Below are positions 19,820-34,104 of a DNA stretch of 34,258 nucleotides, piece by piece; the first letter of the stretch is position 1; each line of letters starts with the position of its first letter. The notes below the pieces were generated by a model. The model had not been told where the DNA came from. It was given only the letters and a program-made list of their open reading frames with translations, and did no database searches. A program made the position numbers and the translations under genes. Source of the DNA: Thermodesulfovibrionia bacterium (GTDB taxonomy: Bacteria > Nitrospirota > Thermodesulfovibrionia > JACRGW01); NCBI GenBank assembly GCA_919902655.1, contig CAKKRL010000057.1, forward strand, positions 7,356 through 41,613, in the 5' to 3' direction.

Positions 19820-20453
19820 CACCCTTAAAGGAATAGAAGAATCAAAGGAATTATATTTTACAGGAGGTTCTGCCCTTTCTGCTTATTACCTTCATCACAG
19901 ACTTTCTGAAGACCTCGATTTTTTTACCCCTGTGGAAGACATGATTCAGCTTATTTCGAGAAAACTATTACAATCTCTTGAGAAAAAAGGCATGAAAGTT
20001 GAGATGGTCAGAAACTTTAAAAGCTTTGTGGAGATGATAACAAGCAGGGGCAATGAATCAATGAAAATTCAGATTGCCCTCGACAGTCCGTACAGGCTTG
20101 AAAGGACCAAAGAGATAGATGGTTTGATAGTTGATAGCCTTATGGATATAGCAGCAGGCAAACTTCTTGCCCTTTTCGGCAGGGCAGCGGAAAGAGATTT
20201 TGTAGATATTTATTTTTTGATAAAAGAAGGCAAGTTTAATCTTGACGAATTGATCAATAAGGCATCGAAAAAAGACCCGGGAATGGATAAATATTATCTT
20301 GCGATAGCCTTTGAACAGGTCAGGGATCTGCCGGATACATCTGAAGAATTAAAGCTCAGGCTCTTGAAGCCTCTGGATGTAAAAGAACTGAAGAGGCTTT
20401 TCATAGAAAAGGCAGTGCAATTGATTGATGAAGCAAGAAAAGGCAAGAAATAG
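19767..20453 (+). CDS. AbiEii/AbiGii-family nucleotidyltransferase toxin (DUF1814-type)
   Basis: GGSALSAYYLHHRLSEDLDFF is the family's catalytic N-terminal motif (GGxAL...R.S.DLDF). Also RDFVDIYFL further on. TTG start at 19767, or alternatively TTG at 19791. Confidence 0.8.
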   Translation: MSGKEKGPLTELQQEIINTLKGIEESKELYFTGGSALSAYYLHHRLSEDLDFFTPVEDMIQLISRKLLQSLEKKGMKVEMVRNFKSFVEMITSRGNESMKIQIALDSPYRLERTKEIDGLIVDSLMDIAAGKLLALFGRAAERDFVDIYFLIKEGKFNLDELINKASKKDPGMDKYYLAIAFEQVRDLPDTSEELKLRLLKPLDVKELKRLFIEKAVQLIDEARKGKK

Positions 20454-20485
20454 TTTTTAAACTGAAAATCAGGGCGCTGAAAATA

Positions 20486-20525
20486 AACTCATTAACTCTG
20501 GAACTCTTTAACTCTTGAACTTATA
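20486..20525. repeat. Octamer tandem array AACTCTKK (5 units), intergenic
   Basis: aactcatt aactctgg aactcttt aactcttg aacttata. Lies between two convergent genes. Confidence 0.8.
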
Positions 20526-20624
20526 CGGTTGGGGTGAAGGGGAAGAAACCCTACTCAAAAGCGTCTCAGAGATACTTCTCTACGAGTCATAGACCAATAA
20601 AACAAGGATTGAAACTGGATATGA

Positions 20625-21275
20625 CTACTTTGCGACCGCTTCTATCTCGAGGTTAATCGCATTTGTCCTTATCTTCCATTCTGCGAAATCTGATTTATGA
20701 AGTATGGACTCCGCTTCCTCAGTGGTGTAAGATGCCATAAGAGAGGACACAAATAGATTCCTCATATAATTGTCCCTTATCAAGGGGGCGAATATAAGAT
20801 TTTCTTCTCTCCGTCTGAGGTCGTAGATAAGGGCGGTTCCGTCTTTCTTCAAAACCCTCTTCACCTCATTGAATACCGGGGCCGCATCCTTCCAGTGGTG
20901 GAGGGAGACGTAGCTTACTACTGCCTCAAAACTATTCTTTTTGAAAGGAATACTTGAGGCATCAGACCTTATGAATTTTACCCTTGACCCTAATCCCTCA
21001 TCTATGATTGCCTTCTTTGCGATATTCAGCATATCCATCGATATATCAACACCGAAGACCTCAATATCCCTGAATCCCCTTGCGATCTCGATGCAGAGAA
21101 GCCCTGTTCCTGAACCGATGTCCAATACCCTGCCTGAAGAAATACCTGAGGACGAGAGCGACTTAATGATCCTCTTATGCCCTAATGGGTAGAGATATTT
21201 TTTCGCCTGGAGGTTATAGACCTCAAGCTCCTCATGATTCCCCATTACCTCCGGTTCTTCGATTCTTCCTCTCAC
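20625..21275 (-). CDS. Class I SAM-dependent methyltransferase
   Basis: Motif I VLDIGSGTGLLCIEIA, then the acidic motif VFGVDIS. GTG start 3 nt after the desaturase stop. Confidence 0.85.
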   Translation of the reverse strand: MRGRIEEPEVMGNHEELEVYNLQAKKYLYPLGHKRIIKSLSSSGISSGRVLDIGSGTGLLCIEIARGFRDIEVFGVDISMDMLNIAKKAIIDEGLGSRVKFIRSDASSIPFKKNSFEAVVSYVSLHHWKDAAPVFNEVKRVLKKDGTALIYDLRRREENLIFAPLIRDNYMRNLFVSSLMASYTTEEAESILHKSDFAEWKIRTNAINLEIEAVAK

Positions 21276-21278
21276 AAT

Positions 21279-22742
21279 TTAAATTGATATTCCTTCTTTC
21301 CTGCAAATCTCAACAGCAGACTTAAAACCGGAATACGCTGATGTTAATACGCCTCCACCCATTCCACCCCAATGTCCTGCTATAAAAAGATTATGCATGT
21401 TATGCCTGAAAGGTTTTATATAACCGGGCACCTGTTTCCAGCCATATGCGGCACCCTCATAATTAAAGGTATATTTTTTTAAAGTCAGCGGAGTAGCTGC
21501 TTCAATATGCACAATGTTTTTTCTGATATCCGGGATAAGATTTTCTGCCTTTTGCAACAATCTATCAATAAGCTCTGATTTATGTTTATTCCATTGCTCA
21601 ACAAACCCGAAGTTGACCATTTCATGAAGTATCAGCGAATGGTGTCCGTCAGGGGAAAGGGTTTTATCTTCAATTGTAGGGACGGTGATGCCGAGAGATG
21701 ATTTATTCCCGAAAGCAGATTTGGGATTGAATAAATGTTCCATATCGTAGGATGGGAAATAACCAATACTCGAACATCCCGGCAGATTAGATAGCCTCCC
21801 TCTGATCCCGACGTACACCATAAAGAAAGATGATGATATGCCAGGGCATCTCAGCCTTTCTTCTGCTGAGGAAACATATTTACCTCCTATTAGTTCTCTG
21901 AATGTATGCATGAAATCAGCATTGGAAATAATGAACCTTCCTGTATATATCTCTTTGTCTGCGGTCTGAACACCATAACAGAGGTCCCCTTCTAAAAGTA
22001 TCTTTTCTACCTGCTTGTTGAAGATTACTTTCCCGCCCTTGTTTATTATACCATCAACAAATGTATCAGAAAGTTTCTGGTACCCTCCGACAGGGCGATA
22101 TGCCCCCATTCTGAAATAGGACATTACCAGTGATATCATCGATAATACTGAAGTCTTTGAGGGTGGCAACCCTATAAAGGGACATCTGTCTGAGAGGATG
22201 GAAATCAATCTTCTATCTGTGATAAAATCTTCAATAAAACCACTGTAAGAATCGTTCACAAACTTATAAAGAATATTATATTCAGGAAAAGGCCCTAATC
22301 TGCCACCGATAAGTGATTTGTTTATTTTCTCTATCAAAGAATATATTTCGTCTATTTTCCTGAATAGATTTTCTATGCCATCTTTCTCAAAAGGGAAAAG
22401 GCTTTTAAGATTATTAATATATACATTAATATCACTGTCCACATTTATTTCGACATCAGGGAATATGCTTGCACGTATAGGATCAACCCTTACAAAATCT
22501 ATAAATCTTTCTGCACCGAGCCTTTCAAGAACAAGACTTATTATTCTTTCCGGACCAACCCCTGCTATGCAATCTACTACCGAGTTAAAAATAAATCCTT
22601 TTCTTATAAACGAGCTCAAATAACCTCCTGGCTTGCCCTGTTTTTCTATTACAAGAACTTTAAACCCCTTTGAAGACAAAAGGCTTGCACTAATCAGTCC
22701 ACCAATCCCACTTCCAATAACAATAATGTCAAAATCTTTCAC
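21279..22742 (-). CDS. CrtI/phytoene-desaturase-family FAD-dependent oxidoreductase
   Basis: N-terminal Rossmann motif DIIVIGSGIGGLISASLLSSKGFKVLVIEKQGKPGG. 487 aa. C-terminal FIAGHWGGMGGGV is typical of the family. Confidence 0.85.
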   Translation of the reverse strand: MKDFDIIVIGSGIGGLISASLLSSKGFKVLVIEKQGKPGGYLSSFIRKGFIFNSVVDCIAGVGPERIISLVLERLGAERFIDFVRVDPIRASIFPDVEINVDSDINVYINNLKSLFPFEKDGIENLFRKIDEIYSLIEKINKSLIGGRLGPFPEYNILYKFVNDSYSGFIEDFITDRRLISILSDRCPFIGLPPSKTSVLSMISLVMSYFRMGAYRPVGGYQKLSDTFVDGIINKGGKVIFNKQVEKILLEGDLCYGVQTADKEIYTGRFIISNADFMHTFRELIGGKYVSSAEERLRCPGISSSFFMVYVGIRGRLSNLPGCSSIGYFPSYDMEHLFNPKSAFGNKSSLGITVPTIEDKTLSPDGHHSLILHEMVNFGFVEQWNKHKSELIDRLLQKAENLIPDIRKNIVHIEAATPLTLKKYTFNYEGAAYGWKQVPGYIKPFRHNMHNLFIAGHWGGMGGGVLTSAYSGFKSAVEICRKEGISI

Positions 22743-23949
22743 AATTCACCTTTTTTAAAGTAATACATAAATGATTCCCGCCGGTAGAGAACCCATTGAC
22801 GAGGGCGGCTTCGATATTTTTCCTCCTCGATTCATTCGGCACGCAGTCGATATCACACTCAGGGTCAGGGTCTTTATAATTTATCGTCGGTGGGATTATA
22901 CCTTCTTTTACTGAAAGAGAAGCCACTGCCACCTTTATCCCGCCTGACGCCCCGATCTCGCCTATCATAGATTTTATAGAAGAAGCAGGTGGATGGCTAT
23001 TCCCAAATACTGACTTTACAGCTTTTGATTCAAGGGCATCGAGTAAGCTCGAAGAATCAGCAGAGGCTGAGATATAATCTATATCTTCAGGAACAAGTCC
23101 CCCGTTCTTTATCGCCCCTTCCATGGCCTTACAGAGACCGGTCGGTTCTTCGTCCCATCCGAGAAGTGGGGCGTGAGTGCCATAGAAACCAAAACCTGCG
23201 ATTTCTGCATACATCCTTGCATTTCTTTTTACAGCGTCTTCCATCCTCTCAAGTATTAAAAACCCTGCCCCTTCTCCGAGAATAATACCGTTCCTCCTCC
23301 TGTCATAAGGGCAGGATTGCTCGCTACCGGTTGCAAGGACATTGAGAATGTCATGGACCTGATAAAGGATCCAGCAGATCTCATCGCAGCCTCCGGTAAT
23401 AATAATATCCGCTTTTTTTCTACGTAAAAGATTATATCCGTAAAAAATTGCCTGTTCTGCCGACGACTGCTTATGGACGACTGTAACATTTGGCCCTTTA
23501 ATCTCGAGTTCAATGGCTATATAACTTGCAGGTGCGTTTGATACGGTATTAGGAAAGATAAAGGGATTTGCCCTCGAAGGACCGTAATCTACAAGTCCGT
23601 TGAGATATTGAGAGGTGCTTTTTAGGCTACCGTATGCTGTACCTATAACAACACCTGCCCTATCTTGCCAGGAAAATTCCTTAAGTCCTGCATCCTCTAA
23701 TGCAAGCCTTGCTCCTGCCACAGCAATATGGGAAAGCCTGTCCATCTTTCTTTCGTTCGATGAACTTATAAAATCTGAAGGATTAAATTCCCTGACCTCA
23801 GCACCCTTATGGGATGAGAACCTCGCTGTATCGAATGAACTTATCTCCCTTATCCCTGATATACCCTTAAGGGCATTCGCCCAGAAAGCTTCTTTTCCTA
23901 TCCCTATAGGGGTGATGAGACCTATTCCTGTTATGACTATTCTTTCCAT
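22729..23949 (-). CDS. Ketosynthase beta / chain-length-factor-like subunit (catalytic triad replaced)
   Basis: KAS fold (MERIVITGIGLITPIG). The active-site Cys position reads HKQSS (Cys to Gln). The two His positions read ASADSS and GEIGASGG. 13-nt overlap with the upstream KS gene. Confidence 0.85.
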   Translation of the reverse strand: MERIVITGIGLITPIGIGKEAFWANALKGISGIREISSFDTARFSSHKGAEVREFNPSDFISSSNERKMDRLSHIAVAGARLALEDAGLKEFSWQDRAGVVIGTAYGSLKSTSQYLNGLVDYGPSRANPFIFPNTVSNAPASYIAIELEIKGPNVTVVHKQSSAEQAIFYGYNLLRRKKADIIITGGCDEICWILYQVHDILNVLATGSEQSCPYDRRRNGIILGEGAGFLILERMEDAVKRNARMYAEIAGFGFYGTHAPLLGWDEEPTGLCKAMEGAIKNGGLVPEDIDYISASADSSSLLDALESKAVKSVFGNSHPPASSIKSMIGEIGASGGIKVAVASLSVKEGIIPPTINYKDPDPECDIDCVPNESRRKNIEAALVNGFSTGGNHLCITLKKVNCERF

Positions 23950-25205
23950 CTTCTAAAGACGAGACAGGCGTTATTTCCGCCAAAGGCAAATGAATTTGAG
24001 AGGGCAATATTTATATCCGCTTCCTTCGCTTTGTTTGCAACATAATCGAGATCACATTCAGGGTCTCTCGCAGAGTAATTTATTGTCGGAGGGATGATCC
24101 CATTATGTATAGAGAGAACAGATACTACGGCCTCTATTGCACCTGCAGCGCCGAGGGTGTGACCGACCATCGCCTTGATTGAACTTACAGGAACACCTGT
24201 ATCATTGCCGAGGACCGACTTTATGGCCCTTGTCTCCATAAGGTCATTGAGTGGCGTAGCTGTGCCGTGGGCATTTATATAATCTACATCTTTAGGTGTT
24301 ACTCCTGCATCTTCTAACGCATTCTTTATTGCCATGGCCGCGCCTTCTCCGTCTGGTAGAGGGGCTGTCATATGTCCTGCATCACAGCTTAACCCATAGC
24401 CTGAAAACTCTGCATAGATCCTTGCCCTCCTTTTGATTGCATGCCCGAGTTCCTCGAGTATAAGGAAGGCCGCCCCTTCTCCGAGGGAAAGACCGTTTCT
24501 TTTCATGTCGAAAGGTTTGCATGGTTCGGGGTCAACCAGTCTCAGGGAATTGAATCCGCTATATGTAAGCCTGCAGAGAGATTCTACGCCACCGGCCATC
24601 ATTGCATCCTGATAACCGAGTCTTATCATATCAAGGGCATGACCCAGTGCAACTGCACTCGAGGAGCAGGCTGTCATGATAGTTGTCCTTGGGCCTGTAA
24701 GACCCCAGTAACCTGCAATAAGATCAGCGGTTGTTGCAGGCTGTTGTGAGATAAGAATAGAAGGTTTTACCTTCTTCCTTTTATAGACACCCTCATAATA
24801 GACCTCTCCAGCAAGCATCCCTCCTACACCGACGCCTATACTGACACCCATATTTCGGAGTTCAAATCCCCCCTTACCCCCCTTTTCTAAAGGGGGGGTG
24901 GGGGGATTATGGGGGAAGATAGACGCATCTTCCATTGCCATCTTAGTTGCCAAAAGGCCAAGCCTGTCACTTCTCGAAAGTCTGTCTTTTCTGTATACTC
25001 CATGTCTGAAGTCTGATGTCTGAAAGTCAGGTATCTCTTTGACCTCTGCGGCTATATGTGTCCGATAATCCCTGTGGTCGAAAAGCCCGAATTCTTTTAT
25101 CCCGCATTTACCCTCTATGAGGCTATGCCAGAAATCGGTAAGGTTACTTCCTATTGCTGTGATAATACCAAGGCCAGTAATTACAACTCTGCGAGTATTA
25201 CTCAT
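23937..25205 (-). CDS. Beta-ketoacyl synthase (KAS II-like, catalytically complete KS-alpha)
   Basis: Cys-His-His triad contexts TACSSS, NAHGTATP and VGHTLGAAG. I prefer ATG 25205 (MSNTRRVVITGLG, 8-nt overlap with the upstream stop) over the track's GTG 25241. Confidence 0.9.
   Translation of the reverse strand: MSNTRRVVITGLGIITAIGSNLTDFWHSLIEGKCGIKEFGLFDHRDYRTHIAAEVKEIPDFQTSDFRHGVYRKDRLSRSDRLGLLATKMAMEDASIFPHNPPTPPLEKGGKGGFELRNMGVSIGVGVGGMLAGEVYYEGVYKRKKVKPSILISQQPATTADLIAGYWGLTGPRTTIMTACSSSAVALGHALDMIRLGYQDAMMAGGVESLCRLTYSGFNSLRLVDPEPCKPFDMKRNGLSLGEGAAFLILEELGHAIKRRARIYAEFSGYGLSCDAGHMTAPLPDGEGAAMAIKNALEDAGVTPKDVDYINAHGTATPLNDLMETRAIKSVLGNDTGVPVSSIKAMVGHTLGAAGAIEAVVSVLSIHNGIIPPTINYSARDPECDLDYVANKAKEADINIALSNSFAFGGNNACLVFRRWKE
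24864..24909. repeat. C-run/G-run palindromic element, copy 3 (inside the KS-alpha gene)
   Basis: AAATCCCCCCTTACCCCCCTTTTCTAAAGGGGGGGTGGGGGGATTA. Translated on the minus strand as NPPTPPLEKGGKGGFE. Confidence 0.8.
25004..25031. repeat. Heptamer tandem array GTCTGAA (3 good units plus 1 degenerate)
   Basis: gtctgaa gtctgat gtctgaa agtcagg. Translated on the minus strand as PDFQTSDFRH in the KS-alpha N-terminal region. Confidence 0.7.
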
Positions 25206-26226
25206 TCTTCCAGCAGGTGGGGTCTGATGCGAAAGGGTCACCTGTCATCTGATATGCTACTCCCCTGCATCCATAACAGGAAGGACTCAGGTTACAGTCC
25301 CTGCAGGGACCCTTAAGGTTCTCTTTTATGTTCCTTAGTCCCTTACGCAGCGATGAATTATTGAGGATCGAAGAGAGACTGTCATTCCTTATATTCCCTA
25401 TAGCGATATCAACTCCGGCACAGGGGTTAACATTACCGTTGGAGGTTATGAGACAGCTATAATAACACCTGTTACAGGTGAGTGCGGCTATCGGAGGTTT
25501 GGGTTCCCATTTGTATCCAAAATATTTCTTATCCATGTCCGAGAGTTTTTCAAAAAGCGCCTTGATCTCTTTTGGTGAAACCCAGAGGGAATTATTCCTT
25601 GCCCTCCCCTGCGGGGTAATGGTTTCAAAATATGGTATAATCCCCTTCTCCCTTGCCCACATCCATATATCAGGTAGTTCCTCTATGTTCTGGCGGCATA
25701 TTATCGTTTCCACACCGAGCTGGATTCCATTCTCGTGATAGCCCACATCGAGAAGTCTCTGGATACCCTCGGTTATCTTCTCGTATGTACCCTTAATCCC
25801 GCCTGCCAGATAGTCCTGTATCTCTTTATTAAAACTGTTAAGCTTTACACAGACAGAGACCTTATGGTCAGAAAGTTTCTTTGCCATTTTTCTGGATATA
25901 GCAGTTCCGTTTGTAAAAACAATAGTCGGGATATTTCTACCCTTCAGGTAAGCAGTTATTTTAAAGAAATCAGGATATATAAGTGGTTCACCTCCGCCTA
26001 CTATGCTCACCTTTTTAGCGCCGAGATCGACCGCCTGATCGATTACATCGAAGATCTCTTCAGTTGTCAACTCATTCTCTAAAGGCTCACCTCCATTTGT
26101 ATAACAGTATATACATCTGAGGTTACACCTCCTGCTCAGTTCGAGGTCGAGTGTGAGGAGCCTGCCATCCCTCATCGCCCTTTCTATCTCTTTCCAGTCA
26201 AGGTCAAGGCCATAGACCTTTTCCAT
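25198..26226 (-). CDS. Radical SAM enzyme with a SPASM-type C-terminal Cys-rich domain
   Basis: CX3CX2C motif in LSRRCNLRCIYCY. C-terminal clusters CNRCYYSCLITSNGNVNPC and GPCRDCNLSPSCYGCRG. Confidence 0.85.
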   Translation of the reverse strand: MEKVYGLDLDWKEIERAMRDGRLLTLDLELSRRCNLRCIYCYTNGGEPLENELTTEEIFDVIDQAVDLGAKKVSIVGGGEPLIYPDFFKITAYLKGRNIPTIVFTNGTAISRKMAKKLSDHKVSVCVKLNSFNKEIQDYLAGGIKGTYEKITEGIQRLLDVGYHENGIQLGVETIICRQNIEELPDIWMWAREKGIIPYFETITPQGRARNNSLWVSPKEIKALFEKLSDMDKKYFGYKWEPKPPIAALTCNRCYYSCLITSNGNVNPCAGVDIAIGNIRNDSLSSILNNSSLRKGLRNIKENLKGPCRDCNLSPSCYGCRGVAYQMTGDPFASDPTCWKNE

Positions 26227-27508
26227 TATCCCTCCTGTCGAAAAACCTTCTTGGCTTTCTGTCTCCCTCTTTATACTGCATGTCCCTTATCATCTCAGGG
26301 TCGTGGAGTGTTATCTCCGGGGTAACCCTTGCATGGGCATTGATCTTTTTCCCTATCTCTTTCCTGAATAACTCATCCCTTCTCCCGGAACCGACTCTCA
26401 CATGGAGTTTCTCACCGTGGTCATCGCCTATATACGCCTCGAGTACATAATTTACAACTTCAGGTATCCCGTTAAGGATGTCTTCAACCTGAGAAGGGTA
26501 GATTGCTGTCCCTTTCAGTTTTATTGCCTGTTTCTCCCTTCCGAGGATCGGTCCTATCCTCGGGGAGCTCCTTCCGCATTCACATTTTTCGTTTATCATA
26601 AAGGTAATATCCCCTGTCCTGTATCTAATAAGTGGCATTGCCTCTGTTCTGAAGGTAGTAACAGTTAGCTCCCCTGTTTCCCCTTCAGGCAGGACATTAC
26701 CCTTCTCATTTATAACCTCACAGTAAACAAGGTCGGGATGGATATGCCCTCCCCTCTTTACCTTACATTCGCACATCGATGTGGCAATCTCTGTATTCCC
26801 GTATGTAGAATAGAGATCGAGGTCCCAGATTTCCTGGATAGCCTTGCCGATATTATTCATGCTGAAATCCCTGTTCTTTATACTCTCTCCTATCAGGACA
26901 GCCTTCTTGAGGCCAAGGTCTTTAGGTCTAATGCCTTCATTTTCTGCCTCCTTAGACAAGGCGATAAGATATGTCGGTACACTCACTATTCCGTTCGGCC
27001 TAAGCTCCTTCATCACCTTAAGGTGCATCTTTGTGTTCTTCGTACCCACCCTTATAGCCTTTGCACCGAGCCCAGTTATTCCGAGGTAATATGCCATCCC
27101 TGCTATAAACATGCTGTCGAGGGTCACTGCAAGCTGAAAGGTATCCTGATCGGTTGCCCCTGCAGTAGTAAAACTTTTCATCTCGTTCTCCTTCAGGCGG
27201 ATAAGGTCATTTGATGAGAGGGCAATATATATCGGTGCACCAGTTGTCCCGCTGGTATTAACATATTCTACAACCCTCTTTTTAGGGACAGAGAGAAAGT
27301 CGTTATTTCTTTTTTGAAGATCTTCTTTTGTTGTAAATGGAAGGGATCCTATATTTTCAAGGGTAACATCACCTGGATCTATTTTACTAAGCCTCTCTTT
27401 ATAAAAAAGGGAGTTTTTCAGGATGTAATTCAGGGACTCTCTTAAAAGCTTTTCCTGTGCCTTCCTGATTTCTTCTTTGTTTTTAAATTCTAACTCGTCT
27501 ATTCTCAC
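26204..27508 (-). CDS. Phenylacetate-CoA-ligase / coenzyme F390 synthetase-family adenylate-forming enzyme
   Basis: P-loop-like motif NTSGTTGAPIY. YGNTE and RYRTGD motifs. 434 aa, the short ANL form typical of PaaK. Confidence 0.85.
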   Translation of the reverse strand: MRIDELEFKNKEEIRKAQEKLLRESLNYILKNSLFYKERLSKIDPGDVTLENIGSLPFTTKEDLQKRNNDFLSVPKKRVVEYVNTSGTTGAPIYIALSSNDLIRLKENEMKSFTTAGATDQDTFQLAVTLDSMFIAGMAYYLGITGLGAKAIRVGTKNTKMHLKVMKELRPNGIVSVPTYLIALSKEAENEGIRPKDLGLKKAVLIGESIKNRDFSMNNIGKAIQEIWDLDLYSTYGNTEIATSMCECKVKRGGHIHPDLVYCEVINEKGNVLPEGETGELTVTTFRTEAMPLIRYRTGDITFMINEKCECGRSSPRIGPILGREKQAIKLKGTAIYPSQVEDILNGIPEVVNYVLEAYIGDDHGEKLHVRVGSGRRDELFRKEIGKKINAHARVTPEITLHDPEMIRDMQYKEGDRKPRRFFDRRDNGKGLWP

Positions 27509-29880
27509 GGCCTTTTAAGGATAAGAAAGGATGATTTTTTAGTATAGCAGAGGCTCAGTATTCCTACAACAGAAAATTTCTCTTTCCATAGGGATGCCGC
27601 AGCAACAGAGAGAGGCCCGTGCGCCCCGAAGGTCTCACCCAGAAGTGGTTTCAGATATACAAGAGAAGGGTTATGCCTGAATATAGAACCTATAGCCTTC
27701 TGCTCGATCCTGTCTATAAAAGTAGAGTTGGCGCTCAGAAACAGGGCATCTATACTTTCCGGGTTGCATCCTGCCTCTCCGAGGGCATCCTCGATAGATC
27801 TCGTTATTGCCCTATTAAAATCCCTGTTACAGGAGAATCCGTATCCTATGACCTCGGCATAGATCCCTGCACCCCTTTTAAGGGCACCGGAGATATCTTC
27901 AATTATAAAAAAAGAAGCCCCCTCTCCCGGGATAAATCCATTATCTTCAAAGGGTACTATATCCCTGCTCTTTGAGAGCGACTTCAGCCTGCTCAGGCAT
28001 TTATGGAGTATCTCCCCGTATGCGTCAACCCCTCCTGCAAGGATAGCATCGGCATGTCTCTTCCTGAGCGTAAGTGATCCCAGACCTATTGCATCGAGGC
28101 CGGAAGTCCAGCCAGAACTCATGGTCAGGTTCACCCCTTTCATCTTAAACTCTATAGCAAGCTCCCCTGTAGCAGCACTCGGAATTGTGTAGGGGAAAAG
28201 AAAGGGGCTCACCCCCTCCGGCCCCAGTAGGAGCAGATCCCTGTAAAACCTCTCGTTTGTTATGAGGCTACCGTATGCCGTACCCAGGACTATACCGTTT
28301 CTTTCACCATCAGGGGTTAATCCTGAATCTGTTATTGCGAGGTGAGAACCTATCATAGCAAGGCTGGAGACCCTGTCGAGCCTCCTGAACCTGTCAGCCT
28401 GTGCGACTTCCTGTTCCTTTCCATATCGGGTTTCGTTTAAATTGGCGGCGAGCCATTCATCAGGGATAATGTCTTTTATCTCTGAAGAGAACAAATATTG
28501 ATAAGGCGATGGGTCGAATGAACCTATTTCAGAAATACCTGACTTTTTATTTTGAAGACCCTTACAGAAATCATCCTTACCAATACCAACTGGCGAAACA
28601 ACACCTATGCCTGTAATTACTGGCCTCCTGCTCCCCCTCACCATTCCTCTCCCCTTAGGGGAGAGGGCGGGGGTGAGGGGGCATTTACTCAAAATAACTG
28701 CCGCATTATTCCCTCCAAAGGCCGAGGATGTAGACAGGGAGATATCAACTTCTGCCTTTCTCGGTTTGTTAGGTATATAGTCAAGGTCACATTCAGGGTC
28801 GGTTTCATTATAGTTTGCCGTCTGTGGCAGCAATCCCCTTTTCATAGCAAGTATAACCATTATAGCCTCAAGCGCACCTGAGGCACCGAGACAGTGCCCT
28901 GTAAGTGATTTTATAGAATTTACAGGAATCCTGTAGGCACCCTTTCCGAAGACCTTTTTAAAGGCGAGGGTCTCCATCCTGTCATTATAGAGCGTACCAG
29001 TTCCGTGGGCGCTTATGAACCCGATATTGTCTTTACCTGCATTACTATCACTTATCGCCATCCTGATTGCCCTCGCAAGGCCTGAGCCGTCCCTCGATGG
29101 ACCTGTCATATGCTCTGCATCAGAGCTCAAGCCATAACCAAGTACCTCTGCCCATATCTCTGCACCCCTTTTTTTAGCATTGGAGAGTTCTTCGAGTATA
29201 AGGAAACCTGCGCCTTCACCGAGTGCAAGGCCTGTCCTGTCCCTGTCAAAGGGTCTCACGGGTTCATCAGTTGTAGCTCTCAGGATATCAAACCCGCTGA
29301 ATACAAAGGGAGAAAGGACATCCACGCCCCCACAGATCATAATATCTGCCCTCCTGTCTCTGATAATCTCAAGACCGAGGCCTATCGCCCCTGTCCCGGA
29401 GGCACAGGCGATAGAGAGTGTGATATTTATTCCAGAGAGTCCGAAATGTTTTGCTATCTCTGATGAAGGGCCATAGTAAGGGGACTGGAGTATCAACCTT
29501 AAGGGATCATCGCCTCTGGCATGAACCGTATGGCTCATGCCTCTGTAATATTTCTCTCCTGATGACATGCCTCCGAGGGAAGTGCCGAGGACTATGCCGA
29601 TATCATTTTTTGACGGGTCTAATCTGGAGGATCTAAGTGCCTCTTCTATTGCGGTGATCGCATACCGGGAGGCCATGCTGTACCTCGTGGTGAGACTGCC
29701 GAACCATCCGGAGAGACCCTTTATCTCTGCTGCCTTTCTGCAGCGGTATCCGTTTGTATCAAAACCCCCGATCTCCTTTATCCCTGTCTTGCTGTCTATC
29801 AAGGCATCCCAGAAATTATCGAGGCCGATACCAATGGCAGAGACAACTCCCATCCCTGTAATTACAACTCTTTTATTCAT
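27505..29880 (-). CDS. Fused ketosynthase didomain: KS-alpha (complete triad) + KS-beta-like (triad lost)
   Basis: N-terminal domain: IACASG, SAHGTGT, TGHCLGASG. C-terminal domain: the Cys position reads SSGWTSG, and the His positions read SANSTF and GETFGAHG. The domains are joined by CPLTPALSPKGRGMVRGS, which is encoded by a palindromic repeat. Confidence 0.85.
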   Translation of the reverse strand: MNKRVVITGMGVVSAIGIGLDNFWDALIDSKTGIKEIGGFDTNGYRCRKAAEIKGLSGWFGSLTTRYSMASRYAITAIEEALRSSRLDPSKNDIGIVLGTSLGGMSSGEKYYRGMSHTVHARGDDPLRLILQSPYYGPSSEIAKHFGLSGINITLSIACASGTGAIGLGLEIIRDRRADIMICGGVDVLSPFVFSGFDILRATTDEPVRPFDRDRTGLALGEGAGFLILEELSNAKKRGAEIWAEVLGYGLSSDAEHMTGPSRDGSGLARAIRMAISDSNAGKDNIGFISAHGTGTLYNDRMETLAFKKVFGKGAYRIPVNSIKSLTGHCLGASGALEAIMVILAMKRGLLPQTANYNETDPECDLDYIPNKPRKAEVDISLSTSSAFGGNNAAVILSKCPLTPALSPKGRGMVRGSRRPVITGIGVVSPVGIGKDDFCKGLQNKKSGISEIGSFDPSPYQYLFSSEIKDIIPDEWLAANLNETRYGKEQEVAQADRFRRLDRVSSLAMIGSHLAITDSGLTPDGERNGIVLGTAYGSLITNERFYRDLLLLGPEGVSPFLFPYTIPSAATGELAIEFKMKGVNLTMSSGWTSGLDAIGLGSLTLRKRHADAILAGGVDAYGEILHKCLSRLKSLSKSRDIVPFEDNGFIPGEGASFFIIEDISGALKRGAGIYAEVIGYGFSCNRDFNRAITRSIEDALGEAGCNPESIDALFLSANSTFIDRIEQKAIGSIFRHNPSLVYLKPLLGETFGAHGPLSVAAASLWKEKFSVVGILSLCYTKKSSFLILKRP
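28633..28681. repeat. GC-rich nested palindrome (second subfamily) forming the KS-KS linker
   Basis: CCCCCTCACC ATT CCTCTCCCC TTA GGGGAGAGG GCG GGGTGAGGGGG, with both outer and inner arms complementary. Confidence 0.8.
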
Positions 29881-29907
29881 CGAGATGCCTGTGGCTAAAC
29901 CTCCAGC

Positions 29908-30708
29908 TTAACGTTGTCTCACTGCTTCATAAAGGCAGATAGCAGCAGAGGCAGCGACATTAAGACTTTCTGCCTTTCCTATGATTGGAACCTTAAGAAT
30001 AGAATCAGCATTCCTTTTCATTTGATTGCTAACACCGTGAGCCTCATTCCCGAAGACAAAGGCAACAGCATTTTTAAGGTTTGCATCAAATAAAGATACC
30101 TTAGCATCCACATCAGTAACGATCAGGGGTATTTTCTCCGAGGTCAGCCATTTGAGCAGGGCGTCGGTTTCTGCATGGATAACCGGTATATTAAAGATAC
30201 TTCCGGCAGTCGCCCTTATAGTTTTCTGCATAAAGGGATCGCATGTGCCTTTAAGGATTATCACAGCATCTGCACCGGCTGCATCAGAAGTCCTGATGAT
30301 TGTGCCGAGGTTTCCAGGTTCCTGAACACCATCGATTACCACGATAAGAGTGACCGATCTGAATCTTATCTCCCTGAGATTTCTATGTGTATAAGATGCT
30401 ATCGCAATTATACCCTGAGGGGTTTCTGTATCCGTGAGTTTATTAAGTATCCGGTCTGTAACTTCAAATATCTCAAAAGTCTTTTTCAAAATCTCCCTTA
30501 AGAGCCTTTGCCCTTCCTTTTTTGCTGAGAATGAAGATGTAAAAAATGCCTTCTTTACCGGGCTTCCCGATGCCAGAGCCATCTCAACAAGATGAGGGCC
30601 TTCAATGATAAACGCCTTTTCCCTGTATCTGTCCCTTTTATTCTTTATATCAAACGCTTCCTTGATTTTTGGGTTCGAGAGACTTGTAATTATTCTGATT
30701 GCTTCCAT
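29908..30708 (-). CDS. TrmH/SpoU-family RNA 2'-O-methyltransferase (RlmB-like, with N-terminal substrate-binding domain)
   Basis: SPOUT motifs NLGTIIRTSDAAGAD, VFGNEAHGVS and ESLNVAASAAICLYE. Confidence 0.85.
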   Translation of the reverse strand: MEAIRIITSLSNPKIKEAFDIKNKRDRYREKAFIIEGPHLVEMALASGSPVKKAFFTSSFSAKKEGQRLLREILKKTFEIFEVTDRILNKLTDTETPQGIIAIASYTHRNLREIRFRSVTLIVVIDGVQEPGNLGTIIRTSDAAGADAVIILKGTCDPFMQKTIRATAGSIFNIPVIHAETDALLKWLTSEKIPLIVTDVDAKVSLFDANLKNAVAFVFGNEAHGVSNQMKRNADSILKVPIIGKAESLNVAASAAICLYEAVRQR

Positions 30709-30718
30709 AATTAAATCC

Positions 30719-32011
30719 TTATCGCCTTATGGTCCTTGACCATGCAGACCTCAGGCTCAGGTTCATTGGTAAGAAGATCTGTAGTCCCCTCATAAAACCA
30801 AAGAGCCTCTTCCCGATTGAAGGCAAGGAGTAGAACTCCTTATATGCAATTTCATGGCCTATCCGGAGCTCCTCTGGTGTCATCCCTTTGGGCCTGAATA
30901 CTACATGGTCCATGTCGTAGAAAGACCAGTCCTTTGTGAGTATCCTCCCTTCTCCCTCTAACTTTTTAAATATCTTTGTCCCGGGGAAGGGCGTGAGTAC
31001 AGCGAAGATGATAGCATCGAGCTTTACCTTCTGGACAAAGGTGAGGGTTTTATCGAAGATGGATACATCGTCATCGTCATAGCCGAAGATAAAGGAACCC
31101 TGTATCCTTATACCGTGGTCATGTATCTTATTAATTATATCTTCATAATGGGCTACCCTGTTAAACCTTTTGTTCATCCTGTTAAGGGTCTCCTGGTTAA
31201 GGCTTTCAAAACCCATAAAAAGGCCATAACATCCACTCTCAGCGCAGCTCTTGAGAAGCCCATCATCATGTGCTATAGTTGTGGATGCCTGGCTCATCCA
31301 TTTAATCCTATATTCCTTAAACAGACCGAAGAGTTTGAGGGCATACCTCCTGTCCCCGACTATATTGTCATCCACAACGAATATATACCTCCCCCTCCAG
31401 CCTTTCTGCTCGAGGGACACGATCTCCTTTTCCACATCTTCTAACGGTCTCTGGCGGAAGGACTTTCCATGAAAGGCCGTTACAGAGCAGAACTCACAGT
31501 CAAAGGGACAACCCCTTGTAGTCTGAATGGTATTGTATAAAAGATATTTGTCTCTGTTCAGCAGGTCCCTCCTCGGTACAGGGATATTAGAGATGTTTGA
31601 CAAACCGGGCGCCCTGTAGATTTTTTTTATGTTTCCGCTCTTATAATCCTCAAGGATCCCTGCCCATACACCTTCTGCCTCACCTATAACCACAGAGTCT
31701 GCATGTTCGGATGCCTCTTCAGAAAGCCATGTGGGGTGGTAGCCACCGAGGACTACTTTTACATCCCTTTCCCTGAAGGTGTCCGCAATTTCATAAGCCC
31801 GCGGTGCAAGGGGAGTTATTGAAGATATTGCAACAAGGTCAGGCCGTGAATCAAAATCTATCGGATCAATATTTTCATCAACTATCCTGAGATCAAATTC
31901 AGAAGGTGTGAGCCCGGCCAGGAGAGGTACCGAAAGATAAGGGAATCGGAATGTCGCCTTTCCCCAAAGGCTGAAGGAAGGCCATTTAGGGATTATGAAG
32001 AGGATCTTCAT
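30719..32011 (-). CDS. B12-binding-domain radical SAM enzyme
   Basis: MKILFIIPKW...VVLGGYHPTW cobalamin-domain pattern. Radical SAM motif TTRGCPFDCEFC. 430 aa. Confidence 0.85.
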   Translation of the reverse strand: MKILFIIPKWPSFSLWGKATFRFPYLSVPLLAGLTPSEFDLRIVDENIDPIDFDSRPDLVAISSITPLAPRAYEIADTFRERDVKVVLGGYHPTWLSEEASEHADSVVIGEAEGVWAGILEDYKSGNIKKIYRAPGLSNISNIPVPRRDLLNRDKYLLYNTIQTTRGCPFDCEFCSVTAFHGKSFRQRPLEDVEKEIVSLEQKGWRGRYIFVVDDNIVGDRRYALKLFGLFKEYRIKWMSQASTTIAHDDGLLKSCAESGCYGLFMGFESLNQETLNRMNKRFNRVAHYEDIINKIHDHGIRIQGSFIFGYDDDDVSIFDKTLTFVQKVKLDAIIFAVLTPFPGTKIFKKLEGEGRILTKDWSFYDMDHVVFRPKGMTPEELRIGHEIAYKEFYSLPSIGKRLFGFMRGLQIFLPMNLSLRSAWSRTIRR

Positions 32012-32069
32012 ATCACTTGACTTGAAACGTGATACTATATAAACTTAACCAAATTGTGTCAAGGGATTT

Positions 32070-33476
32070 ATGCGGGTTCTCCTTATATCAGCGAATAACG
32101 AAAAGAAACCTTACCCTGTTGCACCCCTCGGCCTTGCCTATCTGTCAGGGGCACTGATCAAAGAAGGTCACGATGTAAGGATACTCGACCTCTGTTTTGT
32201 TGAGAATGTTGAAATTTTTCTAAATACTTCTATAGGAGAGTTTTCACCTGAATTGATAGGTGTCTCTATAAGGAATGTGGATAACCTTACATATCCTCTG
32301 AGTATTTCCTATCTACCCTTTATAAAATCTGTTACCGATCATATTAAAGCTATCACGGATGCCCCTATTGTCCTCGGTGGTTCAGGGTTTTCTATATTCC
32401 CCAATTCAATGCTTGACTACCTCGGACTGGACTTAGGCGTAATAGGAGAAGGAGAAAAAGCTATAAAAGGGCTGGCAGGAGGAGAAGGCATTGAAGTCAT
32501 ACCGAATCTTGTATTCAGGGAGGGTAACGGTTTCAGCAGGAATATGATAGAACCAATCGAAGATTTCGGAAGACCATTCAGGGGGGGTATTGACAATGAG
32601 GGCTATCTGAAATGGGGAGGGATGGGAAACATCCAGACAAAGAGGGGATGCCCATTCAACTGTATATACTGCACATATCCGTTAATAGACGGAAGGAAGG
32701 TGAGGCTCAGGGAACCTGATGATATAGGTGAAGAGATCGGGCGTATGCACAGGGAATACGGGATAGACCATATCTTTTTTGTCGATGATATCTTTAACTA
32801 CCCTGTAGAACATGCAGAGACCATCTGCAGGGAGATGATAAGGAGGAAAATCAATGTCCGGTGGACCGCCTTCTGTAACCCTGCCTTTATGTCTCCTTCG
32901 TTATTTACTTTGATGAAGGAAGCAGGCTGTCAGGGGATAGAGTTCGGAACAGACTCTCTCTCTGAGCATGTATTAAAGAACCTCGGAAAATCCTTCAGCC
33001 CTGAAGATGTGGTAAATGCCTGTGAGTCATCCGGAAAGGCCGGTCTCGGAGCAGCCCATTATATAATCTTTGGAGGGCCGGGTGAAACTCCGGAAACCAT
33101 GAAGGAGACCTTTGAGAAATTGGACAGACTCGACCCAACTGCCGTGATCGCTATGATAGGGATTCGGGTATATCCTGGGACAACTATAGAGGCGATGGGA
33201 AGAGGTGATGGTCTCTTAAAAAGGGGTGCTGTAATAGACGATGGGAAGGTCAATGACCTCGATCCTTTCTTCTACCTATCTTCAGTCGAAGACCCGACCC
33301 ATAGGGAAGAAGATACCCTGATAGAGATGGTCAGAGAACACGCCATCAGCAGACCCAACTGGGTTGTACCCGGTCTCAACATTAGAAGTGGAGGAGAGGA
33401 TTTTATTAAGCTCAGAAAGATAGGTAAGAGGGGTCCGCTGTGGGACCTCCTTAAAGGTAATGCTCAGAGATTTTAA
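32070..33476 (+). CDS. B12-binding-domain radical SAM enzyme (divergent from 30719-32011)
   Basis: MRVLLISANNEKKPYPVAPLGLAYLSGALIKEGHDVRILD. Radical SAM motif TKRGCPFNCIYC. 468 aa. Confidence 0.85.
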   Translation: MRVLLISANNEKKPYPVAPLGLAYLSGALIKEGHDVRILDLCFVENVEIFLNTSIGEFSPELIGVSIRNVDNLTYPLSISYLPFIKSVTDHIKAITDAPIVLGGSGFSIFPNSMLDYLGLDLGVIGEGEKAIKGLAGGEGIEVIPNLVFREGNGFSRNMIEPIEDFGRPFRGGIDNEGYLKWGGMGNIQTKRGCPFNCIYCTYPLIDGRKVRLREPDDIGEEIGRMHREYGIDHIFFVDDIFNYPVEHAETICREMIRRKINVRWTAFCNPAFMSPSLFTLMKEAGCQGIEFGTDSLSEHVLKNLGKSFSPEDVVNACESSGKAGLGAAHYIIFGGPGETPETMKETFEKLDRLDPTAVIAMIGIRVYPGTTIEAMGRGDGLLKRGAVIDDGKVNDLDPFFYLSSVEDPTHREEDTLIEMVREHAISRPNWVVPGLNIRSGGEDFIKLRKIGKRGPLWDLLKGNAQRF

Positions 33477-33894
33477 ACCTGCTGTTGACAGGAAGGCATT
33501 GATATTTCTGGCAGGTATTGTCTGGAGTATTGCAGGCATTATTCTCTGCAGTTATGCCGTTAGCTGGCTCTCTTTAAGCGGGAAGGGATTATCTTTCGGT
33601 CTTGCAGGTCTGTTAATCTCTCTTATTGTCTATCATTTCGGCTTCTCCGATATCGTTAAAAAAAATATAGACCGTATCTCCCTGATGGGAGAGAAGGTAT
33701 GTATCTTTGCCTTCCAGCCATGGAAGAGTTACATTGTGGTAGTCTCAATGATGGGTATGGGTATCCTTCTCAGACAACTCCCAATCCCAAAGCATTATCT
33801 CTCTATAATCTATATAGGGATGGGCCTTGCCATGATATTCTCAAGCATTCAATACTATAGAGTCTTCTTAAAGGTGTCTGTAGAAGGTGGATGA
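33460..33894 (+). CDS. Small polytopic membrane protein, translationally coupled to the radical SAM gene
   Basis: 144 aa with about four hydrophobic segments. 17-nt overlap with the upstream gene. I recognise no family. Confidence 0.5.
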   Translation: MLRDFKPAVDRKALIFLAGIVWSIAGIILCSYAVSWLSLSGKGLSFGLAGLLISLIVYHFGFSDIVKKNIDRISLMGEKVCIFAFQPWKSYIVVVSMMGMGILLRQLPIPKHYLSIIYIGMGLAMIFSSIQYYRVFLKVSVEGG

Positions 33895-33938
33895 AAGTTT
33901 TCAAGAATACTAACTTTGTTTTAGAACATATAAAACCC

Positions 33939-33968
33939 TTTACAACTACCTATCTCAGATTCTATAAT
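33939..33968 (+). promoter_or_regulatory. Possible promoter for tRNA-Glu
   Basis: TTACAA (33939-33944), an 18-nt spacer, then TATAAT (33963-33968), about 60 nt upstream of the tRNA. Confidence 0.3.
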
Positions 33969-33986
33969 TACTTTATCTATTTTCTT

Positions 33987-34020
33987 AACTCAAAACTCTT
34001 AACTCTCAAACTATTAACTA
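33987..34020. repeat. Heptamer-like tandem array with an AACTC core (5 units)
   Basis: aactcaa aactctt aactctca aactatt aacta. It ends 8 nt before the tRNA and shares the AACTC core with the array at 20486. Confidence 0.7.
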
Positions 34021-34028
34021 TTTTTCAT

Positions 34029-34104
34029 GGTCCCATCGTCTAGAGGCCTAGGACGGTGCCCTCTCAAGGCATAAACACGGGTTCGAATCCCGTTGGGACC
34101 ACCA
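34029..34104 (+). tRNA. tRNA-Glu: tRNA-Glu, anticodon CUC, CCA encoded
   Basis: Hand-folded cloverleaf. Acceptor stem GGTCCCA/TGGGACC. D arm GTCT..GGAC. Anticodon stem GTGCC/GGCAT with loop CTCTCAA (anticodon CTC). T arm ACGGG-TTCGAAT-CCCGT. 3' ACCA. The 5' half closely resembles the E. coli tRNA-Glu sequence as I remember it. Confidence 0.9.

Follow-up and report, generated by a model that had tools for sequence, protein, structure and literature searches.

Gene clusters of the kind associated with ladderane lipids have been described since 2009 (PMC2649909), have formed the class 'ladderane lipids' of antiSMASH since its version 3, and are also represented by a curated NCBIfam family. Ladderanes themselves have been found only in anammox bacteria; Desulfotalea has syntenic clusters but no ladderanes (PMC2649909). 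Several metagenome studies have reported such clusters from non-anammox phyla and stated their function as unknown. Here we analyse a locus of this class, rich in ketosynthases (KSs) and radical SAM (S-adenosylmethionine) enzymes (rSAMs), in DNA assigned to a Thermodesulfovibrionia bacterium (contig CAKKRL010000057.1). The window, that is, the whole stretch analysed, is 34,258 nucleotides long, and positions are counted from its first letter. A first-pass annotation, made from the letters alone, had pointed to homologues of the cluster in non-anammox anaerobes with no assigned product, and the literature agrees.

Two described arrangements are closest to the locus. The kuste3335-3352-type cluster, which is syntenic with Desulfotalea psychrophila, contains rSAMs, a 'phytoene dehydrogenase' (PDH) and a 'phenylacetyl-CoA ligase' (Rattray et al., PMC2649909). 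Kuenenia Cluster I (kuste3603-3608) comprises amxACP, amxFabZ, amxFabF2, amxFabFmut, a PDH and a B12-binding rSAM (10.64898/2026.05.19.726425). The anammox homologues form heterodimers of the KS/chain-length factor (CLF) type that decarboxylate malonyl-ACP (acyl carrier protein; 10.64898/2026.05.19.726425). So far no experiment has linked an enzyme to the formation of ladderanes, even in anammox bacteria (2026 review; preprint 10.64898/2026.05.19.726425).

The cluster of the window is real and conserved, but of an already catalogued kind. Its grouping of genes is not due to chance, because the gene sets recur in dozens of loci of other phyla. What sets it apart is a deep Nitrospirota-affiliated host, a mosaic of three modules, the lack of genes for ACP, ketoreductase (KR), dehydratase (DH) and export, and a fused KS-CLF next to a Gln-type CLF. 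By analogy with described systems, and with modest confidence, we read positions 14220-33894 as one composite pathway for a specialised envelope lipid, not a ladderane. The product would be aryl-polyene-like, built by enzymes of the type II polyketide synthase (PKS) or fatty-acid synthase (FAS) kind on an ACP encoded elsewhere, and tailored anaerobically by rSAMs.

Gene content and extent of the locus

The right-hand part of the locus contains the following features.

20625-21275, minus strand: class I SAM-dependent methyltransferase, 216 aa (Methyltransf_11/25)
21279-22742, minus strand: flavoenzyme of the CrtI/phytoene-desaturase family ('PDH'), 487 aa (CrtI/amine-oxidase family)
22729-23949, minus strand: full-length KS-like protein of the chain-length-factor type (CLFb), 406 aa, with Gln-Ser-Glu at the triad positions
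23937-25241, minus strand: ketosynthase with intact triad (KSa), 434 aa, with Cys-His-His, a TACSSS motif and a palindrome-derived in-frame insert
25198-26226, minus strand: radical SAM/SPASM enzyme, 342 aa (Radical_SAM and SPASM; nearest AhbD/NirJ, far under the cutoffs)
26204-27508, minus strand: PaaK/FlxY-like (PaaK/F390-like) adenylate-forming ligase, 434 aa (Pfam/NCBIfam)
27505-29880, minus strand: KS fused to a predicted dead KS/CLF, 791 aa, two KS units in one open reading frame (ORF)
29908-30708, minus strand: protein resembling SpoU/TrmH-family RNA 2'-O-methyltransferases, 266 aa (Pfam SpoU_methylase, 128.6 bits)
30719-32011, minus strand: B12-binding radical SAM enzyme 2 (rSAM2), 430 aa, first gene of the minus operon (Pfam B12-binding and Radical_SAM)
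32034-32062, minus strand: sigma-70-like promoter match TTGACA-17-TATAGT, 11 of 12 positions, a consensus match only
32070-33476, plus strand: TIGR04072 'lipid biosynthesis B12-binding/radical SAM protein' (rSAM1), 468 aa, CX3CX2C motif (371 bits, cutoff 360)
33460-33894, plus strand: membrane protein with about four transmembrane (TM) helices, 144 aa, overlapping the rSAM gene by 17 nt; no Pfam or NCBIfam match
34029-34104, plus strand: tRNA-Glu(CTC), right-hand end of the locus and the only RNA from the Rfam scan

The first-pass annotation had described nine packed minus-strand genes, a divergent rSAM gene and a small membrane protein. All eleven ORFs lie at the coordinates it gave, and Pfam and NCBIfam scans returned domains in agreement with every one of its labels. 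Spacing within the minus operon was also as it had stated, with gaps of at most 27 nt; an overlap of 44 nt, the largest, arises if the GTG start at 25241 is used. The minus operon is separated from the divergent TIGR04072 gene by 59 nt, and in this gap, upstream of rSAM2, sits the best promoter-like match of the region. Rfam scanning of the window at gathering thresholds gave no cobalamin riboswitch nor any RNA except the tRNA, and terminator-like sites were not commoner than in shuffled sequence.

About 20 kb hold four rSAMs and four KS domains, the count given earlier, since the gene at 17921-19264 is a B12-binding rSAM as well. ACP, KR, DH and thioesterase (TE) genes had been declared missing, and no PP-binding, KR, FabA/FabZ or thioesterase domain was detected by the Pfam and NCBIfam scans among the window's ORFs of 80 aa or longer. 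The minus operon is packed too tightly to hide a small ACP gene.

The annotated genes are thus real, but the limits drawn around them (20625-33894) were too narrow. To their left lie the following features.

11731-14142, minus strand: Omp85-family outer-membrane protein, 803 aa (Pfam Omp85 at residues 569-803), divergent from the DUF2229 operon
14220-15146, plus strand: DUF2229 and HGD-D protein 'a', 308 aa (PF09989, 149 bits, and PF06050), a reductase/dehydratase-type subunit of a BCR/HAD-family radical enzyme
15143-16216, plus strand: DUF2229 and HGD-D protein 'b', 357 aa (Pfam)
16213-17166, plus strand: BcrAD/BadFG-type ATPase ('activase'), 317 aa (TIGR00241, 202.7 bits, above the 125.4 cutoff)
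17148-17918, plus strand: LolA-like periplasmic lipid/lipoprotein carrier, 256 aa (Pfam LolA, 72.8 bits)
17921-19264, plus strand: B12-binding radical SAM enzyme 3 (rSAM3), 447 aa (nearest BchE/HpnJ/AprD4 by Pfam and NCBIfam)
19553-20453, plus strand: AbiEii-type toxin and an upstream small ORF, between the two operons (Pfam AbiEii)

The plus operon (14220-19264) is predicted to be part of the same system, which would make the unit span at least 14220-33894, because its genes co-occur with the rSAM pair in dozens of metagenome loci and because a relative (L094) keeps the order Omp85, DUF2229a, DUF2229b, activase, LolA, rSAM3. The Omp85 gene at 11731 may also belong to the pathway as a partner, its membership being uncertain. 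An unrelated Omp85-domain protein lies inside one of the related clusters described below (type A, L008), and the window protein had no homologue in the remaining related loci examined.

The AbiEii pair is a mobile toxin-antitoxin (TA) insert that lies outside the pathway. TA modules differ by position among close relatives: MazEF (5108-5679) and AbiEii are found in the window, PIN in L094 (5219-5904) and YafQ in L003 (4456-4933). The region appears to be a hotspot of TA insertion.

The first 11.7 kb of the window carry unrelated housekeeping genes, namely NikR, CbiMNQO-type transport, an RF-1-domain protein, MazEF, shikimate dehydrogenase, a DUF512 rSAM, an AI-2E transporter, a CDP-alcohol phosphatidyltransferase, an HD/OB protein and a quinone oxidoreductase. 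NikR is followed by CbiM, a PDGLE-domain protein, CbiQ and an ABC-ATPase (1134-4581); together these genes encode an uptake system of the ECF type for nickel or cobalt, and the locus with its three cobalamin-dependent enzymes lies some 10 kb away. The first kilobase (1-1000) has a GC content of 0.53, versus about 0.43 in the rest. It contains a 234-aa minus-strand ORF (244-948) that matched neither Pfam nor NCBIfam, and no Rfam match was found there.

Ketosynthase pairs, ligase and radical SAM enzymes

Alignment at the triad positions gave Cys-His-His for the KS at 23937-25241 and Gln-Ser-Glu for the KS-like protein at 22729-23949, in line with the Cys-to-Gln exchange that had been noticed in the latter. 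In the fusion protein, the N-half has Cys-His-His and the C-half Trp-Ser-Glu; the C-half is predicted to be dead because of these residues. From their triads, both partners are taken to be catalytically dead and chain-length-factor-like, and the locus therefore encodes two pairs of the KS/chain-length-factor type. Gln at the Cys position is the residue of classical type II PKS chain-length factors.

A single base determines if KS and CLF form one protein or two. Window positions 23474-34208 are 99.8 % identical to a sister contig from Hainich groundwater well H51, and the codons AGT AAA of the window (28686) read AGT TAA in that contig (L001 5213). There, a run of N and three clustered mismatches adjoin the KS stop. 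Two assemblies of a 92 % identical relative have AGT AAA and encode a fused protein of 784 aa. The fusion is therefore probably real, as the relative's assemblies share it and the sister-contig stop adjoins a scaffold gap; the TAA may reflect an assembly problem at a hairpin. On the same two grounds, the relative's assemblies being independent of each other, an assembly artefact was rejected as the source of the fusion.

The fusion linker, 'PLTPALSPKGRG', is a translated GC-rich palindrome. A palindromic element of about 49 nt (AATCCCCCC..CCCCCTTTA / TAAAGGGGG..GGGGGGATT) is present in four copies, at 1965-2013, 17189-17235, 24865-24908 and 28629-28683. Of these, three or four are in-frame parts of coding sequences: one falls within cbiM, one at the LolA-like ORF's 5' end, one forms the 'PPTPPLEKGGKGGF' insert of the KS, and one the KS-CLF linker. 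At this junction, the 92 % relative carries a longer form of the element. In-frame palindromic elements are known from Rickettsia, and those of the window resemble them.

Searched against the PDB, KSa and CLFb matched the two 9s5h chains best, with 359 and 296/281 bits, ahead of every canonical FabF. Chain C of 9s5h has Val at the Cys position, which agrees with the description of amxFabFmut in the preprint. On these two points, the PDB code being absent from the preprint text, we infer that 9s5h is the anammox FabF2/FabFmut heterodimer. KSa is 44 % identical to 9s5h_B, 46 % to the KS of the type B loci and 50-51 % to those of type C (see below). The best relatives of CLFb are L011_422 (45 %) and chains B/C of 9s5h (39 %), and the N-half of the fusion is closest to the type A 'KS2' (43.5 %). 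On KS models related to aryl-polyene (APE) synthesis, a profile comparison only, scores were 203-257 bits for NF005490 (cutoff 445) and 327 bits for NF006618 (cutoff 407).

For all KSs the top NCBIfam matches were FabF models, and KSa passes the PRK07314 subfamily cutoff (416 versus 387 bits). Both results would suit ordinary housekeeping FabF/FabB paralogues that lie near rSAM genes by accident, but the probability of such an origin is negligible in our judgement. On the FabF equivalog model TIGR03150, KSa (423 bits) and CLFb (343 bits) are both under the 493.75 cutoff, and two of the four KS domains have lost the catalytic triad. No fabH-fabD-fabG-acpP synteny is present in the window; instead, the genes are translationally packed with those for the ligase, rSAMs and PDH, and this packing recurs across phyla. 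Missing synteny, sub-cutoff scores, lost triads and conserved packing together contradict a housekeeping FAS role. The first-pass annotation had named ordinary fabF genes in housekeeping synteny, and a lack of conserved co-occurrence across genomes, as findings that would speak against it; neither was seen.

For the ligase, the closest named family was FlxY (NF053551; 468 bits, cutoff 520), on which the ligase of the Brocadia type A cluster scored 436 bits. Its closest structures are PaaK enzymes (4r1l, 170 bits). A metagenome scan with the single ligase protein returned no matches. The LolA-like protein scored 93.8 bits on TIGR00547 (cutoff 112) and 93.3 bits on LolA2_flexi (cutoff 125), below both. 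The resemblance to aryl-polyene loci noticed in the first pass was thus borne out by the two proteins, though both stay below the cutoffs. LolA-like genes stand directly 5' of KS/CLF in type C loci.

The PDH reached 138.5 bits on TIGR02734 (cutoff 238) and 170.6 bits on TIGR02730 (cutoff 587), and 87 bits with the CrtI of the PDB (4dgk). The small SAM methyltransferase (20625-21275) is not orthologous to the type A methyltransferases; a 32 % homologue is encoded in a type C locus (L111). The SpoU-like protein (29908-30708) scored 124.8 bits on RlmB (cutoff 160) and 109 bits on TsnR/NshR (cutoff 425). Its gene is kept in the 92 % relative, and it is doubtful that the protein has a role in the pathway.

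Membership of TIGR04072 ('rSAM_ladder_B12') was defined by the curated NCBIfam cutoff, a whole-protein score of at least 360 bits. The protein of 32070-33476 scored 371.0 bits over model positions 1-441 of 443 and is a member; rSAM2 (75.7 bits) and rSAM3 (117.7 bits) are not, so that the lipid-family membership raised for the rSAMs in the first pass applies to the first enzyme but not to the other two B12-binding ones. Homologues of the member form more than 5,000 clusters at E <1e-20, and the named ones belong to Deltaproteobacteria/Desulfobacterota, Nitrospirota, Deferrimicrobiaceae and Brocadia. In a genome scan, the matches listed included Geobacter, Methylomirabilis, Verrucomicrobiota, Bacteroidales, Lentisphaerae, Holophagales and others, the best at 49 %; the window's own lineage was not among the matches listed. 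A cultured non-anammox carrier is Victivallis vadensis DSM 14823 (Lentisphaerae; L063, NZ_QEKH01000012.1), whose version of the cluster is distant, with TIGR04072-like (36 %), SPASM (38 %), ligase (39 %), KS (39 %) and rSAM2-like (34 %) proteins.

The closest solved structure to the TIGR04072 protein was TsrM (6wte, 153.5 bits), and its next-best families were BzaD and TsrM. TsrM and BzaD methylate sp2 carbons. The nearest structures of rSAM2 and rSAM3 were the unnamed rSAM 9ccb, AprD4 and OxsB, with 97.8 bits in the PDB search for rSAM3 against AprD4. Homologues of rSAM2 at 45-55 % stand beside TIGR04072 members in type B loci and beside KS/CLF in type C loci; those of rSAM3 (41-45 %) come after the activase in type B loci.

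A combination of SPASM and B12-binding rSAMs with a C39 peptidase could indicate a ribosomally synthesised and post-translationally modified peptide (RiPP). This was rejected: the peptidase/TPR block is present only in the 92 % relative, as an insertion, and the SPASM enzyme is orthologous to a lipid-cluster enzyme. The 4TM protein belongs to a family of about 145 aa (50-60 % identity, more than 1,600 clusters) without Pfam or NCBIfam model, whose named members are all from Nitrospirota/Thermodesulfovibrionia. It is linked to the rSAM pair only in the lineage of the window. Its role as a dedicated rSAM partner was rejected on the size of the family and on its setting in a Thermodesulfovibrionia genome, where the gene adjoins yidC/mnmE and pho genes with no rSAM nearby. 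No similarity was found between it and the 192-aa unknown protein that follows an rSAM in L009.

Host lineage and recurrent module sets

The host, an anaerobic groundwater bacterium, is placed by its DUF512 housekeeping protein in a deep, thinly sampled lineage affiliated with Nitrospirota, not with the anammox planctomycetes, because every named homologue is from Nitrospirota (50-53 %); a sparse clade of its own lineage has 64-99 % identity.

This placement bears on the idea that the product is a ladderane lipid, or the polyunsaturated precursor once proposed, as in anammox bacteria. TIGR04072 membership, the order KS, dead KS, PDH as in Kuenenia Cluster I, the 9s5h pair as best PDB matches and orthologues of five anammox cluster genes all point that way. 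However, the host groups with Nitrospirota and not with Brocadiales, amxACP and amxFabZ of Cluster I are absent from the window, and identities to the anammox proteins (39-49 %) are no higher than those to homologues of Desulfobacterota and Nitrospirota. Together with the restriction of ladderanes to anammox bacteria and the lack of any gene tied to their formation there, as cited above, this makes a ladderane product hardly credible.

Relatives of the locus fall into three arrangements, which we call types A, B and C. Type A is one arrangement of about 20 genes around a TIGR04072 member, shared by Brocadia UTAMX2 (L005), a 973-kb metagenome contig, a Deltaproteobacteria metagenome-assembled genome (MAG) and a Dissulfurispiraceae-type contig. 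It starts with an ATP-grasp protein, an unknown protein and a polysaccharide deacetylase, followed by KS, CLF, methyltransferase, KS and a short CLF. AMP-ligase, SPASM rSAM and B12-rSAM come next; then KR, ACP, an ApeP/ApeI-like DH and a phosphopantetheinyl transferase (PPTase); and finally a methyltransferase, MMPL, PDH, a family 2 glycosyltransferase (GT2) and an acyltransferase. Against a comparison set that included Brocadia, the Deltaproteobacteria MAG, the Dissulfurispiraceae contig and Methylomirabilis, the window proteins are 48-52 % (TIGR04072 B12-rSAM), 48-51 % (SPASM), 44-49 % (PDH), 42-46 % (ligase) and about 40-43 % (KSs) identical, the ranges for the B12-rSAM and the PDH including Brocadia. 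Homologues of the large anammox cluster occur in Desulfotalea, Geobacter, Nitrospirota and Methylomirabilis. The association of the TIGR04072 gene with KS, ligase and SPASM genes is the same in type A and type B members.

Type B was recognised in genome loci of several Desulfobacterota that pair a TIGR04072 member with an rSAM2 homologue (45-50 %). Three of them add homologues of DUF2229 (about 35 %) and of the activase (55-57 %). One type B locus contains, by Pfam, an LpxL-like lipid A acyltransferase, an ACP, a FabD-like acyltransferase, a thioesterase, four B12-rSAMs, a KR and a KS, and its TIGR04072-like gene passes the family cutoff with 392 bits. When metagenomes were scanned with an alignment of rSAM2, 43 loci of 9 kb or more were obtained. 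A TIGR04072-like neighbour was present in 30 of these 43, and LpxL-like, FabD-like, thioesterase, KR and ACP genes in 26-28 each; the activase was found in 16 (at 55-58 %), DUF2229 in 12-13, the rSAM3 homologue in 11, PDH in 1-2 and the ligase in none. Homologues of DUF2229 'a' (34-38 %) adjoin the rSAM pair in type B loci, and those of 'b' (35-57 %) occur in L017, L023, L025 and L097.

Type B thus shares with the window two DUF2229/HGD-D proteins, the activase (55-58 %), rSAM3 (41-45 %), rSAM2 (45-50 %) and the TIGR04072 enzyme (42-47 %). It differs in having an LpxL-like acyltransferase, ACP, FabD-like protein, thioesterase, a fourth B12-rSAM, KR and a single KS, in lacking ligase, PDH and SPASM enzyme, and in having all its genes on one strand. 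Type B clusters abound in metagenomes from sediment and groundwater (L025, L017, L023 and about 25 loci among L112-L172). We found no description of it in the searchable literature.

In type C, which has the closest rSAM2 homologues (52-55 %), a LolA-like gene is followed by KS (50-51 %), CLF (40-43 %), sometimes a PDH-like gene, and rSAM2. Its CLF is of the Gln type. One type C locus adds an ApeP/ApeI-like DH and a homologue of the small methyltransferase of the window. No ACP was seen near type C loci. By gene content and similarity, the window is a mosaic, or hybrid, of the type A, B and C module sets, specific to its lineage.

A mosaic could also be accidental. Independent modules acting on different substrates (rSAM2/rSAM1/4TM, KS-ligase-PDH and DUF2229-activase-LolA) might have been juxtaposed by rearrangement in a region rich in repeats and TA modules, a possibility that deserves weight although we consider it fairly unlikely. 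Relatives with 73-80 % rSAM identity carry the trio alone between unrelated flanks, and the 4TM family is unlinked to rSAMs in Thermodesulfovibrionia. Five genes have been inserted between the fusion and the ligase in the 92 % relative, TA modules and the 49-nt palindromic element are scattered over the locus, type B lacks ligase and PDH, and type A lacks DUF2229 and activase. However, rSAM2 heads the KS operon with gaps of at most 27 nt, and its homologues immediately follow KS/CLF/PDH in type C and immediately precede TIGR04072 in type B. Each module pair is therefore linked somewhere else. In type A, moreover, TIGR04072 adjoins the ligase and SPASM genes.

Type B bears on the nature of the product, too. 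Its ACP, FabD-like, KR, KS, thioesterase and LpxL-like proteins look like fatty-acyl rather than polyene handling, and both 10-/11-methyl-C16 fatty acids and non-isoprenoid ether lipids are known from the carrier groups Nitrospirota, Methylomirabilota, anammox bacteria and Desulfobacterota. Moreover, the DUF2229/HGD-D and BcrAD domain set is that of Ger, a verified ester-to-ether reductase common in anaerobes (PMC13159169). The product might accordingly be a branched and/or ether-type core lipid of the membrane and not an aryl-polyene-like pigment: B12-rSAMs would methylate unactivated chain carbons, and mid-chain methyl-branched acyl or alkyl chains would be joined to glycerol by way of Ger-like ester reduction. 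We regard this as unlikely. The TIGR04072 enzyme is nearest to TsrM and BzaD, which points to sp2-carbon methylation; the ligase is FlxY/PaaK-like, not FadD-like; and two KS/CLF pairs with a CrtI-like enzyme exceed the needs of methyl branching. As for the Ger-like enzyme, it is encoded by split genes, with a single ATPase domain where Ger has two. Our literature search found no paper tying such lipids to these genes, and none linking mid-chain methyl fatty acids to B12-rSAM genes.

Proposed pathway and comparison with described systems

In the composite envelope-lipid pathway that we favour, the ligase would activate a starter (judging from PaaK and FlxY, probably an aromatic or arylalkyl carboxylic acid) and hand it to an ACP encoded elsewhere in the genome. 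Two KS/CLF heterodimers would extend the starter with malonyl units, the Gln-CLF assisting decarboxylative priming, and the CrtI-like flavoenzyme would tune the unsaturation of the chain. The TsrM-like TIGR04072 enzyme may then methylate an sp2 carbon, aryl or olefinic. Further oxygen-independent C-H or C-C chemistry could be carried out by the other two B12-rSAMs and the SPASM enzyme. The small SAM methyltransferase would cap a hydroxyl or carboxyl function. The DUF2229/HGD-D proteins and their activase, which have the domain set of Ger/PlsA, could reduce or dehydrate the lipid or its linkage at low potential. Finally, the LolA-like and Omp85-like proteins would carry the product to the outer membrane.

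Several observations weigh against this pathway. The substrate assignments rest on family resemblance, and the ligase, LolA-like protein, PDH and KSs fall below the curated cutoffs of every named family. What the relatives with 73-80 % rSAM identity retain is limited to rSAM2, the TIGR04072 rSAM and the membrane protein of about 145 aa, which lie amid unrelated genes and with no KS nearby; modules can therefore exist apart and may not share a substrate. The AbiEii insert parts the two operons, and the Thermodesulfovibrionia 4TM gene mentioned above has no rSAM nearby and lies next to yidC/mnmE and pho genes. The SpoU-like and 4TM genes are without counterpart in about 160 other loci. Since ACP, KR, DH, PPTase, exporter and acyltransferase genes were seen neither in the window nor in the flanks of the 92 % relative, the pathway cannot be complete as seen. 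A product is known for no member of the cluster class in the literature (2026 review, 10.64898/2026.05.19.726425).

A broader proposal takes the minimal catalytic core that the window, devoid of ACP, KR, DH and export genes, would have in common with the anammox clusters (KS/CLF pairs, CrtI-like enzyme, TsrM-like rSAM, SPASM enzyme and ligase) as a widespread anaerobic toolkit that forms C-C bonds on polyene sp2 carbons, by methylation and possibly cyclisation, with ladderane synthesis as one specialisation of it. We hold this to be very unlikely; if it were true, Nitrospirota and Desulfobacterota would also make methylated or cyclised polyene lipids that are still undetected.

Ladderane biosynthesis and the products of the non-anammox clusters have been open questions since 2009, and the window does not answer them. 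It does suggest that ladderane-type clusters have a mosaic make-up, with three or more recurrent module sets sharing a TIGR04072 enzyme, and that a Ger/PlsA-like ATP-driven radical enzyme is part of the type B system. Since the signature B12-rSAM is closest to TsrM, its default reaction is more likely to be the methylation of an aryl or olefinic carbon than ring closure. The modular picture, the Ger-like component and the TsrM-like signature enzyme are useful leads, and cultured carriers such as Victivallis vadensis make genetics feasible.

Of the described systems, Ger and PlsA-PlsR resemble the plus operon by Pfam domain set (BcrAD_BadFG, DUF2229, HGD-D), and both are from anaerobes and a lipid context. 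Ger combines PF01869, PF09989 and PF06050, and in E. coli under anoxia it turns sn-1 esters into ethers (PMC13159169). It is a single BBDHDDH polypeptide, whereas the window has three split genes and one ATPase domain. NCBIfam gave weak generic matches only for the DUF2229/HGD-D proteins with respect to Ger/PlsA kinship.

With aryl-polyene and flexirubin loci (ape, flx), the window shares an adenylating enzyme nearest to FlxY, a SAM methyltransferase and a LolA-like carrier, and it may share the logic of the KS/CLF heterodimer; its type A relatives add an ApeP/ApeI-like DH, MMPL, GT2 and acyltransferase. In contrast, its scores stay under every curated APE and flexirubin cutoff (FlxY 468 versus 520 bits, LolA2_flexi 93 versus 125 bits), and ACPs, KR, DHs, TE, DarA/DarB and TAL are absent from the window. 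Its four rSAMs, CrtI-like enzyme and BCR/HAD-type enzyme are without ape/flx counterpart.

The first-pass annotation had matched the locus to kuste3603-3608. The order KS, dead KS, PDH does agree with that cluster, but the closest counterpart of most genes is the kuste3335-3352 type, represented by type A. Window and type A have in common the local order KS-CLF, ligase, SPASM, and the window has KS with dead KS, ligase, SPASM, TIGR04072 and PDH at 40-52 % identity, the partner KS in type A being truncated or dead. However, the type A genes for KR, ACP, ApeP/ApeI-like DH, PPTase, both methyltransferases, MMPL, GT2, acyltransferase, ATP-grasp protein and deacetylase have no equivalent in the window. 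Its TIGR04072 gene is divergent and lies about 5 kb from the usual SPASM neighbour, its CLFs are full-length, one of them fused to a KS, and B12-rSAM2, SpoU and the 4TM protein are extras.

In both the window and Cluster I, a KS with intact triad is followed by a full-length dead KS and then by PDH, and the KS pair best matches the 9s5h chains (44 % and 39 %). The window differs in having no amxACP or amxFabZ, and a SAM methyltransferase follows its PDH where Cluster I has a B12-rSAM. Its dead KS has Gln at the Cys position, whereas amxFabFmut has Val or Thr.

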